A stretch of DNA of 64,000 nt, taken from positions 576,001 through 640,000 of the forward strand of contig CBDASZ010000001.1 of the NCBI GenBank assembly GCA_965199755.1, given 5' to 3'. Origin of the DNA: an uncultured candidatus Porisulfidus sp. GTDB lineage: Bacteria > Pseudomonadota > Gammaproteobacteria > Poriferisulfidales > Poriferisulfidaceae. Positions 40,124-44,332 of this stretch are shown in pieces. The notes under the pieces were generated by a model, which did no database searches, was not told where the DNA came from, and saw only the letters and a program-made list of their open reading frames with translations. Within the stretch, counting starts at the first letter, position 1. Each line of letters starts with the position of its first letter. The position numbers and the translations under genes are program-made.

Positions 40124-40620
40124 CCTTGTCGGAGAGATCCTCAGGAGTTGTCGAGTGGATTGGTATTCGACCGGGTCGCAGTCAGCCCATGACCGCATGC
40201 TCAGAAGTTTGGGCGTTGCGCAATCGAGGTCTGGAGAAGGATTATGCGGCAAAGCGCACGGGTGGGAAAAGGCAGGTTACGCTGATACAACAGGAAGACT
40301 TCTCTAGGATTGAAGCGCAGTTGAAGGGATGGGCGCAGCCGGAGCAGTTGCGTCGCAATCTGGTGATCTCCGGGATTGATCTCAATACCCTGATTGGACA
40401 GTCTTTTCGGATTGGCGATGCTGTGTTCGAGGGCAGCGGGACGTGTCCGCCGTGCCGCAAAATGGACGCAGCTTTGGGTGAGGGCGGCTGTGTCGCAATG
40501 ACTGATCTGGGAGGCATTACGGCGCGTGTGCTGTCCGACGGTGCGATTCGCATCGGTGACGCAGTATCCCTTGATGGTGTGCCCGATGCGCTTTCGGTTG
40601 CGGCTGTCGAACAGGTGTGA
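40120..40620 (+). CDS. MOSC domain protein
   Basis: [35 protein letters not shown]. Confidence 0.88.
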
Positions 40621-40621
40621 C

Positions 40622-40921
40622 ATGCCAATCTATGAGTATCGCTGCGAGGCGTGCGGCGAGGAGCACGAAGCCTTGCAGAAAATGAGTGAGCCACCGTTGC
40701 GGATATGTCCGCGATGCGGGGAGGACCGTCTGCGCAAACAGTTGACCGCACCTGGTTTTCAATTGAAAGGGAGCGGTTGGTATGAGACAGACTTCAAGGA
40801 TAACGGTAAAGAGAAGAAAAAAGACACAGAGAAATCGGAGAGCAAAAAGGATACCGGAGCATCAAAAACTGCGACCAAGGAATCTACTGCCAAGACATCA
40901 GACAACACGTCCTCGGCCTGA
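40622..40921 (+). CDS. FmdB family zinc-ribbon protein
   Basis: MPIYEYRCEACG...CPRCG...FQLKGSGWYETDF. Confidence 0.92.
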   Translation: MPIYEYRCEACGEEHEALQKMSEPPLRICPRCGEDRLRKQLTAPGFQLKGSGWYETDFKDNGKEKKKDTEKSESKKDTGASKTATKESTAKTSDNTSSA

Positions 40922-41210
40922 TCACTGATTTCAGAGAATTTGGACTTCCAAAAGATCACTCTGGTGCTTCAGGTTGTCCTTGCAAGTCCTGCATGTATGC
41001 ATAGGCAGGCAGTTCTGGCCTCAATTTCTGATTATCCGTGCGAAATGGAAGAATTGTTCACTCATCTCCAATTCTCGCTCCGCCTAAATGCTTGTATTTC
41101 AAGGCTTTCAGCAGGCCAGAAAATTTAAAGCATAGTAAGAGTGTCTGCCAGTCACGCCTTGTGTTTGGCGCAAGGTGGCGGGAACCTAAATAATTTAGTA
41201 AGATGAAGGC

Positions 41211-41552
41211 ATGCGCAAGACATTGCTGACCGCATTGATGGTCATGTACGTTGCAAACACCACCGTAGCGTTTGCTTCGGCGAAGCATTGCGCAATGGAA
41301 ATAGAGCATATCTCCACCATGTCGCAGTCGTCCGAGCATGATCTCTCATGCCATGAGAAGGATCACTCGCAAAATCATGATGAGCACTGCGGCGGCTCCT
41401 GCGCGTGCCCCCATGCAGTCGCGGCATTCACATCCTACTTGAAGTCCGCCGACAGGCTGTTTTCTTTCCCCTCAGTGAAGCCGCAATTCCGACTGCATAA
41501 CGACACGGCGTCCATTCCTCTCACCTGGATCCCTCCGAACCGACCTCCCTGA
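41211..41552 (+). CDS. His/Cys-rich exported leader protein ending PPNRPP (CopL/CutF/CruR DUF2946-like)
   Basis: N-terminal hydrophobic signal, HC...CHEKDH...HDEHCGGSCACPH, C-terminal Pro-rich RPP-stop. Confidence 0.7.
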   Translation: MRKTLLTALMVMYVANTTVAFASAKHCAMEIEHISTMSQSSEHDLSCHEKDHSQNHDEHCGGSCACPHAVAAFTSYLKSADRLFSFPSVKPQFRLHNDTASIPLTWIPPNRPP

Positions 41553-41660
41553 TTCTCTCCCTGAGTGCGCATTTGCGCAATGCGGAACCAATGGGTTTCG
41601 CTGAGGTTGCCGGCGTCATGCTGGCGACGATGATGACTCAATCATTGCTCGGGGAGAACA
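41553..41660 (+). promoter_or_regulatory. putative SD-sequestering multi-branch RNA structure
   Basis: TCTCCCTGAG (41556-41565) pairs with CTCGGGGAGA (41648-41657, contains the SD), enclosing 3-4 inner hairpins. Confidence 0.6.
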
Positions 41661-42305
41661 ATGAAACAAATAACCGCACTGCTGGTGATCAGTGCACTGC
41701 TCCATGCCCCGGAGGCATGGCCGAGACCGGTCTCCTATCCGGGAGGCTGGACCAGCGTGGTGATGAATAGTGACGCGCGCAATTCCCTATACGTGCATTA
41801 TTCGCCCACCTCCAGATATTCACTCGGCTACAAGCTGGAATACTGGCGCGACGGGGAGTACGCGATCTCCGCTCTGCAAATGAATAATTTGCTGCAACGC
41901 TTCAATGGATCGGACTATCAGAGCAATATATATCTGAAGTCTGGTGTCGGCGTCGCCTATCGGGATCGAGGCCAGGAGGATCATAAAGTCGAACCGACTG
42001 TGTATACGGGGGTTGCGATAGACTGGGAGAGCCGCCGCTTTTTTGCGCGATACGAAAATCGCTACACGGAAGCGGGTGCGATCGATGATTTCTTCATGCA
42101 ATCGGTTCGTGTTGGCATCGCGCCTTATCTTGGCGATTATGGCGATCTGCATACGTGGGTGATGCTGGAGCTGGAACATAAGCCGGAACATTATGACCCC
42201 GTTGTGGTCAAACCATTGCTACGCTTCTTCAAGGGCACCCATCTGGTTGAAGTCGGCATGAGCACACGCGGAGAAGTCCTTTTCAACTGGATTATTCGCT
42301 ACTGA
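41661..42305 (+). CDS. uncharacterised outer-membrane beta-barrel-like protein
   Basis: Signal peptide, RPVSYPGGWT start, alternating aromatic beta-strands, C-terminal FNWIIRY. Confidence 0.7.
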   Translation: MKQITALLVISALLHAPEAWPRPVSYPGGWTSVVMNSDARNSLYVHYSPTSRYSLGYKLEYWRDGEYAISALQMNNLLQRFNGSDYQSNIYLKSGVGVAYRDRGQEDHKVEPTVYTGVAIDWESRRFFARYENRYTEAGAIDDFFMQSVRVGIAPYLGDYGDLHTWVMLELEHKPEHYDPVVVKPLLRFFKGTHLVEVGMSTRGEVLFNWIIRY

Positions 42306-42327
42306 ACTTAAACAACAAGAGGAAGAT

Positions 42328-42642
42328 ATGAAAACTAGGAACCTGATTTTGGCGCTGGCGCTGTGGCTACCTGTGGCGCTGGCAGAGACTCCCGCAGAGC
42401 GGATTTATGTCGATGTGAATGGCATGGTCTGCGATTTCTGTGCGCGCAGTCTGGAGAAAGTGTTCGGCAAGCAGGATGCCGTTTCTGGCATTGACGTAGA
42501 CCTGGACAACAAGATTATCACGATTGACCTCAACGAGGGCATGGATCTTGAGGATGAGCTCATCTCGACTCTGGTTGAGGATGCGGGCTACAGCGTGGTC
42601 GGAATACGCCGTGCGGAAGGAGGCGCTAGTGAAAGCGGATAA
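42328..42642 (+). CDS. periplasmic heavy-metal-associated (HMA, MerP/CopZ-like) protein
   Basis: Signal peptide; VNGMVCDFCA CxxC motif; DAGY. Confidence 0.9.
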   Translation: MKTRNLILALALWLPVALAETPAERIYVDVNGMVCDFCARSLEKVFGKQDAVSGIDVDLDNKIITIDLNEGMDLEDELISTLVEDAGYSVVGIRRAEGGASESG

Positions 42643-43033
42643 CTCCTCTCCGGTGACGAGTTCCTGGCGTCAGACGACTCTCTCTTCAGTCAGTCTGCTC
42701 GCCAGCCTTGGCACGCTCGTTTGTTGCGCACTCCCGGCCCTGCTTGTGACGCTCGGCATGGGCATGGCGCTGGCGGGTCTGGTGTCCGCCATGCCCTGGG
42801 TCGTCGTCTTGTCGGAGCACAAGGTCCTTGTGTTTGGCGTGTCGGGCGGGGTTCTGTGTCTGGCCGCCCTGTTGCAGTGGCGCGGGAGAAGGGCACCCTG
42901 TCCTGCGGACCCGCATAAAGCAAAGATCTGCACGCTGCTGCGCGAGGTGAGCTGGACTCTTTTGGGGGTCGCAGTCGTGCTGTATGCGGTGGGCTTCTTT
43001 TTTGCCTTTCTGGCGGCGGATATTTTCTTCTAG
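42629..43033 (+). CDS. MerT/MerC-like three-TM metal transporter
   Basis: GTG start after GGAGG; TLVCCALPALL Cys pair in TM1; loop APCPADP...C. Confidence 0.75.
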   Translation: MKADNSSPVTSSWRQTTLSSVSLLASLGTLVCCALPALLVTLGMGMALAGLVSAMPWVVVLSEHKVLVFGVSGGVLCLAALLQWRGRRAPCPADPHKAKICTLLREVSWTLLGVAVVLYAVGFFFAFLAADIFF

Positions 43034-43177
43034 GGCAGATTAAAGTCGGTATCCGCATCGCCTGAATGTTGCATAATTTGCCGAAATAGAGTAACCTATT
43101 CGCCCGTTGACGCATCCTGTGTTGAGCGGGTTGCGTTTTTTAATGACAGACATATCACTATAGACTTAATCCTACGC

Positions 43178-44332
43178 ATGAGAATCGGGATACCTAAGGA
43201 AATTCGCTCGGGAGAAGCCCGCGTCGCCATTTCCCCAGAAACCATCAAAAAACTGACTGCCATGAACATGGAAGTCGTTGTCGAGGCCGGCTGCGGGCAA
43301 GGCTCCTGCGTCACGGATGAGGAATACACCGCCGCAGGCGCGCAAATCGCGCCGGACGCGGCCGCCACTTTGAGCGATGCCGATCTGGTCTTCAAGGTGC
43401 AACGACCGATGAGCGCGCCAGAAGGCACCGATGAGATCGCGCTGATGAAAGAGGGCGCTATTCTGGTCGGACATCTCGGTGCCTTGTCCAATCCCAACTC
43501 GATCAATGGCTACAACACCCGTAAACTGACTTCCTTTGCCATGGATTTGATGCCGCGCATCAGCCGCGCGCAATCCATGGACGTACTCTCCTCACAAAGC
43601 AATCTGGCAGGCTACAAGGCCGTAGTCGACGCCGCGACCGAACATGTCAGCGCGTTTCCGATGATGATGACCGCAGCCGGCACAGTGGCTCCGGCCAAGG
43701 TGTTTGTCATGGGAGTCGGCGTGGCCGGTCTGCAGGCGATCGCCACCGCCAAGCGTATGGGAGCCGTGGTGACCGCATACGACGTACGCCCGGCGACCCG
43801 CGAGCAGGTTGAGAGTCTGGGTGGCAAGTTCCTGATCGTGGACGAAGAAGCCATGAAGGACGCTGAGACCTCAGGCGGTTACGCCAAGGAGATGACCGAG
43901 GAATACAAGCGCAAGGAGCGCGAAGTGATTGCTGGCCATGTCAAGCAGCAGGACATTGTGATTACCACGGCGCTGATTCCGGGACGTCCGGCACCGGTGC
44001 TGGTGACCCGCGAGATGGTGGAGTCCATGAAGCCAGGTTCCGTGATTGTCGACCTGGCGGTGGAAACCGGCGGCAACTGCGAATGTGCCGAGCGTGGTAT
44101 GGTCGCCGAGCATCAGGGCGTGCGCATCATTGGTTACGACAATATGCCAGCGCGACTGGCGCGCGATGCCAGCAACCTGTTTGCCAAGAACATTCTGAAT
44201 TTTCTTTCTCCGCACATCGACACGGAAAGCGGTTCGCTCAATCTGGATTGGGAGGATGAAACCGTATCGGATACGGTGCTGACGCGCGATGGGGCGGTGG
44301 TCAACGAACGAATCAAGGAGTTGATGTCATGA
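43178..44332 (+). CDS. pntAa: NAD(P) transhydrogenase subunit alpha part 1
   Basis: [38 protein letters not shown]. Confidence 0.96.

Follow-up and report, generated by a model that had tools for sequence, protein, structure and literature searches.

A stretch of 64,000 nucleotides (nt) from an uncultured candidatus Porisulfidus sp. (contig CBDASZ010000001.1, positions 576,001 to 640,000 of the forward strand) was analyzed. This whole stretch is referred to as the window, and coordinates are positions in it unless a related locus is named. The subject is a short open reading frame (ORF) at 41211..41552, called the leader, together with the spacer behind it and three genes that follow, predicted to encode an outer-membrane beta-barrel, a MerP-like protein and a MerT-like protein. 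The barrel gene's Shine-Dalgarno (SD) sequence is sequestered in a helix with sequence just past the leader, this helix is conserved and covaries across homologous loci, and the leader is, in our judgment, probably a switch of the CutF/CopL kind that acts in cis on the translation of an envelope metal module of three genes. The features of the locus are the following, with the evidence for each.

41165..41194, + strand: promoter-like site lying 17 nt ahead of the leader start (TTGGCG, 18 nt, AATAAT); weak (9/12 matches in a consensus scan) and no proof of function
41211..41552, + strand: leader ORF of 113 amino acids (aa), with signal-peptide-like residues 1-24 and the stop codon TGA at 41550-41552
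41385..41414, + strand: codons of the metal-binding-type cluster H-C-x3-C-x-C-x-H, residues 59-68, conserved in the family alignment
41541..41552, + strand: Arg-Pro-Pro codons and early stop, from sequence and translation; the furthest ribosome position on this leader
41553..41564, + strand: leftover of the family's last three codons and the in-frame family-equivalent stop TGA at 41562-41564, now untranslated, matching homologues codon for codon
41556..41566, + strand: 5' arm of the closing helix (anti-SD, core CTCC at 41557-41560) in the minimum free energy (MFE) structure; the same alignment columns pair and covary in homologues
41567..41646, + strand: four inner hairpins (41567-41578, 41582-41601, 41606-41628 and 41629-41646) inside the closing helix, from the MFE structure
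41647..41657, + strand: 3' arm of the closing helix, with the SD sequence GGGGAGA at 41651-41657 and the ATG following at 41661, from the sequence and the MFE structure
41661..42305, + strand: predicted 12-strand outer-membrane beta-barrel of 214 aa, putatively exported (AlphaFold2, Foldseek)
42328..42642, + strand: MerP/CopZ-like HMA protein of 104 aa with a signal peptide (PF00403 at 3.9e-8)
42629..43033, + strand: MerT-like inner-membrane protein with Cys-Cys in its first helix and a C-x-C loop, start codon uncertain (ESM Atlas)

A first-pass annotation made from the letters alone had described the leader as an exported His/Cys-rich protein of 113 aa ending in RPP-stop. Translation bears this out, with the signal peptide recognized by inspection: the N terminus reads MRK, then a hydrophobic stretch, then ...AFASA, with A-x-A ahead of Lys25, and the family consensus at the putative end of the signal peptide is ...AWA-KPC. 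The protein contains five Cys and nine His residues. The residues of note are Cys27, Cys47-His48, His59-Cys60-x3-Cys64-x-Cys66 and Arg111-Pro112-Pro113, and the C terminus is ...WIPPNRPP-TGA.

A HMMER search with the window leader yielded 21 representatives at E <= 1e-3, the best at 3.6e-9. The 22-sequence leader alignment presents a mean column identity of about 30%, with C47, C60, C64, C66, P112 and P113 invariant and C27, H48 and P108 almost invariant. The C-terminal motif of the family is a variable residue followed by R/K-P-P, which in the window reads N-R-P-P. Between the last Cys of CxxxCxC and the first Pro of Pro-Pro, the distance is 42-46 aa in 22 of 22 members (46 aa in the window leader) and 41-47 aa in 34 of 44 loci, these being the ones scorable by motif pattern, and the sequence between Cys cluster and Pro-Pro is poorly conserved. 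When a set of 5.8 billion proteins was searched with the profile, 15 family members were obtained, all of them unnamed or 'hypothetical' and none with a Pfam domain. With only the window leader as phmmer query, 40 relatives yielded no match, which is a miss of sensitivity, as the family hidden Markov model (HMM) found leaders in seven.

The leader family is considered related to CopL because 10 of its 22 members match the CopL_fam model (NCBIfam NF033807) at E up to 1, with a best E of 1.4e-7, though the window leader misses the cut-off of that model. As a comparison set, eight bona fide CopL genes scoring 48-110 bits, above the model cut-off, were used, and their proteins end in R-P-P, two residues and the stop. 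Aligned with hhalign against these eight, the leader family presents a probability of 89.9% and an E of 1.7e-6 over only 48 N-terminal columns, signal peptide included. The CutF-like filter laid out in lists B and D of PMC9973294 selects proteins of <150 aa with Pro-Pro within the last 15 residues and an N-terminal signal peptide. The window leader passes in length (113 aa) and in the position of Pro-Pro, with the signal peptide by inspection, and the 108-nt spacer before the ATG at 41661 agrees with a further criterion given there. Given this agreement and the CopL similarity, the family is termed 'CutF-like' and remotely CopL-like. None of the 22 family members matches DUF2946, a search of the whole genome with the DUF2946 model misses the leader, and the CopL model searched over the same genome does not pick it up either. 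Judged from its sequence, the leader would be an unannotated, remotely CopL-like member of the CutF/CopL class of exported Cys-rich leaders, outside DUF2946 by model. Hence, the CruR/CutF-type assignment made in the first-pass annotation is kept in part: the CutF-like rules and the remote CopL similarity speak for it, but DUF2946 is absent by Pfam and the ending is x-R-P-P, not RAPP.

The spacer had been proposed to fold through a pairing of TCTCCCTGAG (41556-41565) with CTCGGGGAGA (41648-41657), 10 base pairs with one G-U, over the SD sequence of the barrel gene. The pairing is present as proposed, and the MFE structure extends it by T41566-G41647 to 11 base pairs with two G-U pairs. The four hairpins said to lie inside it are also found in the MFE structure, with coordinates within 1-2 nt. 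The spacer presents an MFE of -58.9 kcal/mol, compared with -34.2 +/- 3.6 in 200 dinucleotide shuffles (z = -6.8, with 0 shuffles as stable), a z of -5.7 in a wider 146-nt frame, and a z of -7.1 with a separate shuffle set. It is almost wholly base-paired in this structure, and for the SD bases the probability of being unpaired in the free RNA is 0.01. A scan of 40800-43300 against Rfam returned one unrelated sub-threshold match only, the spacer belonging to no Rfam family. It is not repeated or REP-like (repetitive extragenic palindromic) in its own 1.39-Mb genome, where only the self-match is obtained at E < 0.01, and no intrinsic-terminator-like site was found in it on the + strand.

Conservation of the helix was evaluated on 44 distinct segments running from leader end to start codon, drawn from the window and 48 leader-bearing loci. 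In the MFE structure of most segments, the partner of the SD region runs from about -8 to +4 relative to the leader stop, i.e., over the last two codons (typically ATC-TCC) and the stop. When the 22 nt before the start codon were compared with every 22-nt piece of the last 160 nt of leader plus spacer, the best partner included the leader stop codon in 31 of 44 segments (chance about 0.12), and in 26 of 38 clusters formed at 60% leader identity. Cognate duplexes of leader end and SD average -10.36 kcal/mol, compared with -7.40 for non-cognate ones, a value reached in 0 of 10000 permutations. The MAFFT alignment of the 44 segments presents a 13-pair helix with 70.3% of cells paired (63.6% when shuffled, 0/500) and a covariation score of 0.262 (0.181 when shuffled, 0/500, and 0.07-0.16 with slid partners), values to be read knowing that the structure was derived from the same sequences and that relatedness inflates shuffle tests. 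The second base of the stop codon and its partner form AU in 19 cases, GC in 9 and GU in 2, such that TGA stops face C and TAA stops face T. The fold z is < -2 in 32 of 44 segments, with a median of -3.2, and the SD is sequestered (unpaired probability < 0.3) in 40 of 44 free RNAs. The window helix is the strongest of the 44, with -20.7 kcal/mol. The SD-sequestering helix is thus real, conserved and covarying across homologous loci, and the check by folding and covariation of homologous spacers that the first-pass annotation had suggested came out in favor of the pairing.

The multi-branch form of the RNA, also part of that annotation, is a different matter: the SD helix is conserved and covarying in homologues, but the four inner hairpins are lineage-specific. 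Most homologous MFE folds have one or two inner hairpins, in spacers of 29-139 nt, and the four-hairpin spacer appears specific to the window lineage. Some G+C-rich hairpin lies within the SD helix in most homologues, and loop shortening, protection from RNase and a pause site were considered for it. Hairpin 41567-41578, with a GCGC stem and a T-rich loop, is nearly identical to the single inner hairpin of one related locus, L011. The leader of L011 (1064-1080) reads R-R-P-L-K, not R-R-P-P-K: the second Pro is lost and the helix of anti-SD and SD is retained, which makes this leader a natural test case for the need of Pro-Pro.

The effect of a ribosome at the leader end was simulated by removing the bases it covers, through +13 from the first P-site base, and folding the remainder at equilibrium, a procedure that includes neither helicase action nor kinetics. 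The SD of the window was scored over 41652-41657. Its unpaired probability is 0.01 in the free RNA, 0.17 with Pro112 in the P site (0.17-0.20 across runs), and 0.66 once Pro113 occupies the P site and UGA the A site, the last state freeing G41654-A41657. For the GGAGA core, the value rises from 0.02 to 0.79 between the free RNA and this last state. Across the 44 loci, the median is 0.01 in the free RNA, 0.05 with the first Pro in the P site, 0.35 with the second Pro, and 0.46 at termination. Among the 40 loci in which the SD is sequestered, it is exposed (> 0.5) in 1 with the first Pro, in 10 with the second Pro and in 18 at termination. Counted from the first Pro codon, the start of the 5' arm has a median position of +13 in the 36 loci whose duplex energy is <= -8 kcal/mol, and it is likewise +13 in the window. 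These values suggest that a ribosome pausing with Pro-Pro in the P and A sites would have the helix directly in front of it, and that the helix would open one or more codons later. The idea that a ribosome on RPP-stop opens the SD is therefore upheld for the state with Pro113 and UGA, from 0.01 to 0.66, but not for Pro-Pro in the P and A sites, which leaves the helix closed. Given no later ribosome position exists on the window leader, the termination complex on RPP-UGA would be its only opening state. Slow peptide release after a C-terminal proline is established in E. coli.

A stop directly after Pro-Pro is found in 0 of 43 other distinct loci and in 0 of 21 protein representatives. Four residues follow Pro-Pro in 30 of those 43 loci and in 20 of the 21 representatives, and two follow it in 5 of the 43. 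Homologues read R-P-P, four codons and the stop, and the window reads R-P-P, TGA, three codons and TGA. Because these codons align with those of the homologues, the TGA at 41562-41564 would correspond to the stop of the family, and the 5' arm of the helix to the end of the family's ORF. This bears on CTCCCTGA, which the first-pass annotation had presented as a doubled anti-SD. It is indeed present at both 41545-41552 and 41557-41564, but not as a designed pair: the second copy would be the ancestral ORF end, and the first a by-product of the early stop, the Pro-Pro codons running into the new TGA. The DNA contigs of an independent study, possibly the source of this DNA, are identical over 41000-43200, early stop included, and two RNA-library contigs span the leader stop codon with no differing letters.

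Three further ideas on the leader end were rejected. Two of them, +1 frameshifting at CCC-TGA and recoding of TGA, were dropped since the alternative frames are unsupported in homologues and table 11 gives normal readings for the window's other genes. A conserved distance from Pro-Pro to the helix is inseparable from the distance between stop and helix, since 30 of 43 loci have exactly four intervening codons, and the five loci with a two-codon tail disagree on helix position (L002 at +13, the others from -5 to +8).

The barrel protein has no Pfam and no NCBIfam match. Its AlphaFold2 model, built with a 7-sequence alignment, presents 12 strands and a pLDDT of 72, and Foldseek matches it with the KdgM porin at a TM of 0.54-0.66 and also with NanC, OmpG and the intimin/invasin beta-domain. 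The HMA protein scores below the cut-offs of the CopZ and MerP models (22 bits for MerP, compared with a cut-off of 92.55). The MerT-like protein has ESM Atlas neighbors named as MerT family, with a score of 0.97, and no Pfam MerT match. The genome has no MerA above cut-off, the best hit presenting 311.6 bits against a cut-off of 454, and no MerR was seen at the locus. After the cassette comes pntAB, at 43178. A zinc-ribbon protein (PF09723), its long tail rich in Lys, Ser and Thr, is encoded on the same strand at 40526-40921, a short way upstream of the cassette, and 289 nt of lower G+C separate this gene from the leader. Contigs from RNA libraries (two runs), which may contain DNA, cover 41238-42955, i.e., leader, part of the spacer and the three downstream genes, with at most one differing letter, which is no more than a hint of expression. 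Their gaps at 41000-41237, in parts of 41612-41850 and at 42956-43200 have no bearing on transcript ends.

When species-representative genomes were scanned, the barrel gene turned up, at 60-67% identity, in seven contigs of alphaproteobacterial metagenome-assembled genomes (MAGs). Six of the related loci (L002-L006 and L008) have the four genes intact and in the same order, i.e., leader, barrel, MerP-like and MerT-like. At L007 (1998-3555), the barrel gene is split: a 52-aa N-terminal piece is separated from the rest by about 880 nt of foreign DNA with other small ORFs. L019 shares the upstream ORF seen in L007, and this looks like an insertion into the barrel gene. A metagenome scan with the barrel alignment added 80 further loci, giving 86 examined in all. 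A leader was called by rule where a small ORF directly upstream had Pro-Pro in its last 15 residues. This holds in 48 of the 86 loci, and the leader-family HMM confirms 41 of the 48. Another 11 are undecidable, with upstream DNA too short or no start codon. Of the 64 loci that offer at least 800 nt of downstream sequence, 60 have the HMA and MerT-like genes behind the barrel gene. The same cassette sequence was found near both ends of a metagenome contig of 584,683 bases (L030 and L031), in opposite orientation, which may stem from an assembly overlap, the genome being circular, or from a terminal inverted duplication.

Of 15 genomes from the window's own genus, none gave a match to the barrel gene, and of 12 genomes from a sister family within the same taxonomic order, 7 did. 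Each of the seven has a leader that the HMM detects, with tails of G-P-P-P-K-x-x-S (or x-I-I) and then the stop. The three downstream ORFs of the window are intact and 58-63% identical over their full length to homologues, the closest being in alphaproteobacterial MAGs, and the G+C of the cassette lies a few points under that of its flanks. Given this proximity to alphaproteobacterial copies and the lower G+C, the cassette was likely acquired horizontally by the window lineage.

The loci without a leader suggest which metal is concerned. In 11 of the 27 leaderless loci, a CsoR-like ORF abuts the barrel start, by inspection, and most of these have a CusF-like ORF further upstream. These loci are L069 (847-1462), L047, L071, L072, L075-L077, L079-L081 and L083, and the CsoR-like ORF overlaps the start of the barrel gene. 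The CsoR/RcnR family (PF02583) was confirmed by Pfam in 3 of 3 loci tested (L069, L047 and L071), with E values of 1e-23 to 1e-28, and CusF (PF11604) in the one locus tested, L069; the CusF-like ORFs are His-rich. The C-H-C residue pattern of these CsoR-type repressors is one we take to be of the Cu(I) type. Hence, one and the same module appears either under a cytoplasmic copper repressor or under the leader, and from this alternation we argue that the leader is copper-responsive and the module copper-induced. Copper is the most likely metal for the leader. We infer that the module is induced in either of two sub-models, the metal prolonging the opening state (CutF-like) or releasing a blocking arrest (CruR-like). 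As to the direction of the metal effect on the ribosome, the two are indistinguishable from sequence alone.

The interpretation we prefer, and hold to be probable, is the cis translational switch named at the outset. It builds on observations: the helix, which is conserved and covaries, the family to which the leader belongs, the constant spacing and the cargo genes. As long as the mRNA is free, the 11-bp helix with sequence just past the leader would lock up the SD of the barrel gene. A ribosome at the leader end would cover the 5' arm and free the SD, and its dwell time on the Arg-Pro-Pro end would set how often the barrel gene is initiated. The Cys/His cluster, about 45 residues before Pro-Pro, would probably then be emerging on the periplasmic side of the Sec translocon, where binding of a metal, most likely copper, or disulfide formation would change how strongly the nascent chain is pulled and, with it, how long the ribosome dwells. 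For the window, the state that exposes the SD would be the RPP-UGA termination complex. That the length is constant and the sequence free is to be expected if the Cys cluster needs a defined place in the path of tunnel plus translocon when Pro-Pro is reached. The spacing of about 45 residues also fits the force model published for CutF, in which the nascent chain comes under a different force when Cu is bound or a disulfide forms at the periplasmic face (bioRxiv 10.1101/2025.02.05.636593). Export, an arrest or slow termination, and the metal dependence with its sign are the presumed parts of this scheme.

Several results weigh against the switch. The window leader gives no match to DUF2946 (Pfam PF11162, gathering score 23.7 bits) at E <= 1, reaches 13.7 bits (E = 0.073) with CopL_fam, under the cut-off of 40 bits, and has N-R-P-P in place of the RAPP-like core R-A/G-P-P as defined in PMC12992588. 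The hhalign match to CopL is confined to columns that contain the signal peptide. The best SD partner lies elsewhere in 13 of 44 loci, and the covariation scores carry the circularity noted with them. Pro-Pro in the P and A sites keeps the SD closed in all but one of the 40 sequestered loci, and termination exposes it in fewer than half. Of the 86 loci, 27 have no leader despite at least 450 nt of upstream DNA, which indicates the module can do without one. The Pro-rich tail of CutF fused to LepB is reported in PMC9973294 to have caused no detectable arrest. Lastly, the early stop exists only in the window and could be damage, not design.

A bolder form of the switch is a transmembrane 'ruler' sensor, whose Cys cluster would come out of the translocon at the moment the ribosome arrives at the switch point, shifted in the window to a termination-gated switch in which periplasmic copper would act via the rate of peptide release, with leader and CsoR exchanged between loci. 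We put it forward tentatively, as possible but doubtful. If true, a leader peptide and a transcription factor would be exchanged as regulators of one pump-free envelope cassette.

Among the alternatives, plain translational coupling without sensing seems rather unlikely. The leader would then be a small periplasmic metal-binding protein, perhaps a chaperone for the module, with no regulated pause, and the helix would do no more than link barrel translation to leader translation. The classic layout for coupling is present, with the 5' arm on the last two codons and the stop in most loci, and termination opens the SD oftener than the Pro-Pro pause does (18 against 1 of 40 loci); the window ribosome, however, never translates through the helix, so that full coupling is unavailable there. 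RNA-library contigs span leader and downstream genes, as coupling would have it, yet an invariant Pro-Pro fixed 42-46 aa from an invariant Cys cluster, with variable sequence between, is left unexplained. Furthermore, the related CopL and CutF are cis regulators, and CutF is degraded on export (PMC9973294).

About equally unlikely is that the arrest works as a brake: with Pro112 and Pro113 in the P and A sites, the ribosome would stop short of the helix and hold up those that follow, the SD would stay closed, and release by pull or metal would turn the module on. The 5' arm does begin at the leading edge of a ribosome so placed, and the SD does stay shut with the first Pro in the P site, both in the family median and in the window, although these states come from equilibrium folding, which leaves out helicase action and kinetics. 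RAPP arrests hold two Pro codons in the P and A sites according to the CruR toeprint in PMC12992588, and Cu is proposed to relieve the arrest of CruR (PMC9426467), but in CutF, which has an SD stem-loop and is functionally the closer analogue, stalling turns the switch on. In two loci with a two-residue tail, L008 and L022, the anti-SD can lie on the Pro codons, and an arrest there would open the helix.

That the switch is damaged in the window is less likely still. The early TGA would then be a nonsense mutation that cost the last four codons and keeps ribosomes from getting to the anti-SD, and the module would be mostly off or only partially opened. The stop straight after Pro-Pro is the sole case among 44 loci and 22 proteins, the family-equivalent stop is still in frame at 41562-41564, and the helix to be opened is the strongest of all; the termination complex nevertheless still frees GAGA of the SD. 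The cassette is probably a horizontal acquisition, with no match to the barrel gene in 15 genomes of the genus, but its downstream ORFs are all intact and similar to homologues over their full length. The same sequence also recurs in the DNA contigs of the second study (possibly the source) and, for leader and downstream genes, in RNA-library contigs (which may hold DNA).

Heavily base-paired RNA is a poor loading site for Rho. Attenuation of the CruR type, in which the leader would govern Rho-dependent transcription termination in the spacer and not translation initiation, is highly improbable, for although it is the mechanism of CruR, a related kind of leader that commonly has a long intergenic spacer behind it (PMC9426467), the 108-nt spacer here is almost wholly paired, the conserved element is the pairing with the SD itself, and the + strand of the spacer has no intrinsic-terminator-like site.

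In comparison with known systems, the switch proposed here is of a known kind, that of the CutF/CopL/CruR-type metal leaders. To our knowledge, metal sensing by a nascent exported peptide has been shown so far only for CutF and CruR. SecM, MifM and VemP also have an exported nascent chain whose C-terminal pause opens an SD-sequestering structure, pause and export being presumed in the window, but they monitor the secretion machinery, not metal, and have no sequence similarity to the window leader. In SecM, a few codons lie between the arrest point and the stop.

With mer operons, the cassette shares a MerP-type periplasmic HMA protein followed by a three-helix Cys-Cys MerT-type membrane protein. 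It differs from them in the lack of an above-cut-off MerA in the genome and of a MerR seen at the locus, in the added outer-membrane barrel, and in that related loci adjoin CsoR and CusF genes, which points to copper over mercury.

CruR (Bp2923, Bordetella pertussis, DUF2946) is described as having a RAPP arrest relieved by Cu and read out by Rho (PMC9426467), with arrest in vitro (PMC12992588). The window leader resembles it as a Cys-containing leader with a C-terminal arrest-type motif of Arg and Pro-Pro and with predicted post-transcriptional control of an envelope metal-transport gene. However, CruR uses RAPP, Rho-dependent termination and a dispensable signal peptide and is switched off by copper, whereas the window family has x-R-P-P and a conserved SD helix.

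CopL (Xanthomonas/Stenotrophomonas) is cis-acting and lies upstream of copA (cited in PMC9973294). The CopL proteins are the closest sequence relatives of the window family, with a Cys cluster and an R-P-P ending in common and a signal peptide in CopL that has a signal-peptide-like counterpart in the window leader, but the window family has four residues after Pro-Pro, where CopL has two, another Cys pattern and other downstream genes.

The nearest likeness is to CutF (Rhodobacter capsulatus, cutFOG), in which Cu-induced stalling at a Pro motif is reported to melt an SD-shielding stem-loop, with signal peptide and CxxxC required (PMC9973294; bioRxiv 10.1101/2025.02.05.636593). Both are small leaders with a Cys metal motif and a C-terminal Pro motif, exported through Sec in CutF and by prediction in the window. 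Both head an operon, and in both a stem-loop between leader and next gene conceals that gene's SD. The copper link is shown for CutF and argued from related loci for the window leader. Unlike CutF, the window leader has no DUF2946 match, and it has R-P-P, not PPP, and CxxxCxC, not CxxxC. The anti-SD of its family is formed by the leader's own last codons and stop. In the window, the stop comes straight after Pro-Pro and the helix encloses four hairpins. The cargo is also different: a multicopper oxidase in CutF, and an outer-membrane barrel with MerP-like and MerT-like proteins here.

No paper was found tying MerT/MerP-type genes to arrest-peptide, CopL, CutF or DUF2946 leaders, and genes of these types are not in the CruR synteny list. 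The terms MerT, HMA and mercur- are absent from the main text of PMC9973294, whose list D may yet contain family members. A published study of the marine module of outer-membrane barrel, MerP-like and MerT-like genes was not found either among the papers searched. This agrees with the remark in the first-pass annotation that such a cargo set was not known to have been described under this control, as no paper was found placing it there.

What appears new, judged from the sequences compared, is an unnamed subfamily outside DUF2946, an R-P-P-x4-stop design in which the last codons and the stop serve as anti-SD, the 42-46-residue spacing, the cargo of barrel, MerP-like and MerT-like proteins, and the apparent exchange of CsoR for the leader. 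To these the folding simulations would add the termination-only variant of the window with its four-hairpin spacer. About 50 loci in many lineages form a natural series in which the helix, the position of Pro-Pro and the distance to the metal site can be read from sequence. This makes testable which ribosome position opens the helix, whether a force ruler of about 45 residues operates, and whether a pause at termination can replace one in elongation. The leader family would also provide a second, independent pointer to copper for a widespread marine module of barrel, MerP-like and MerT-like proteins.

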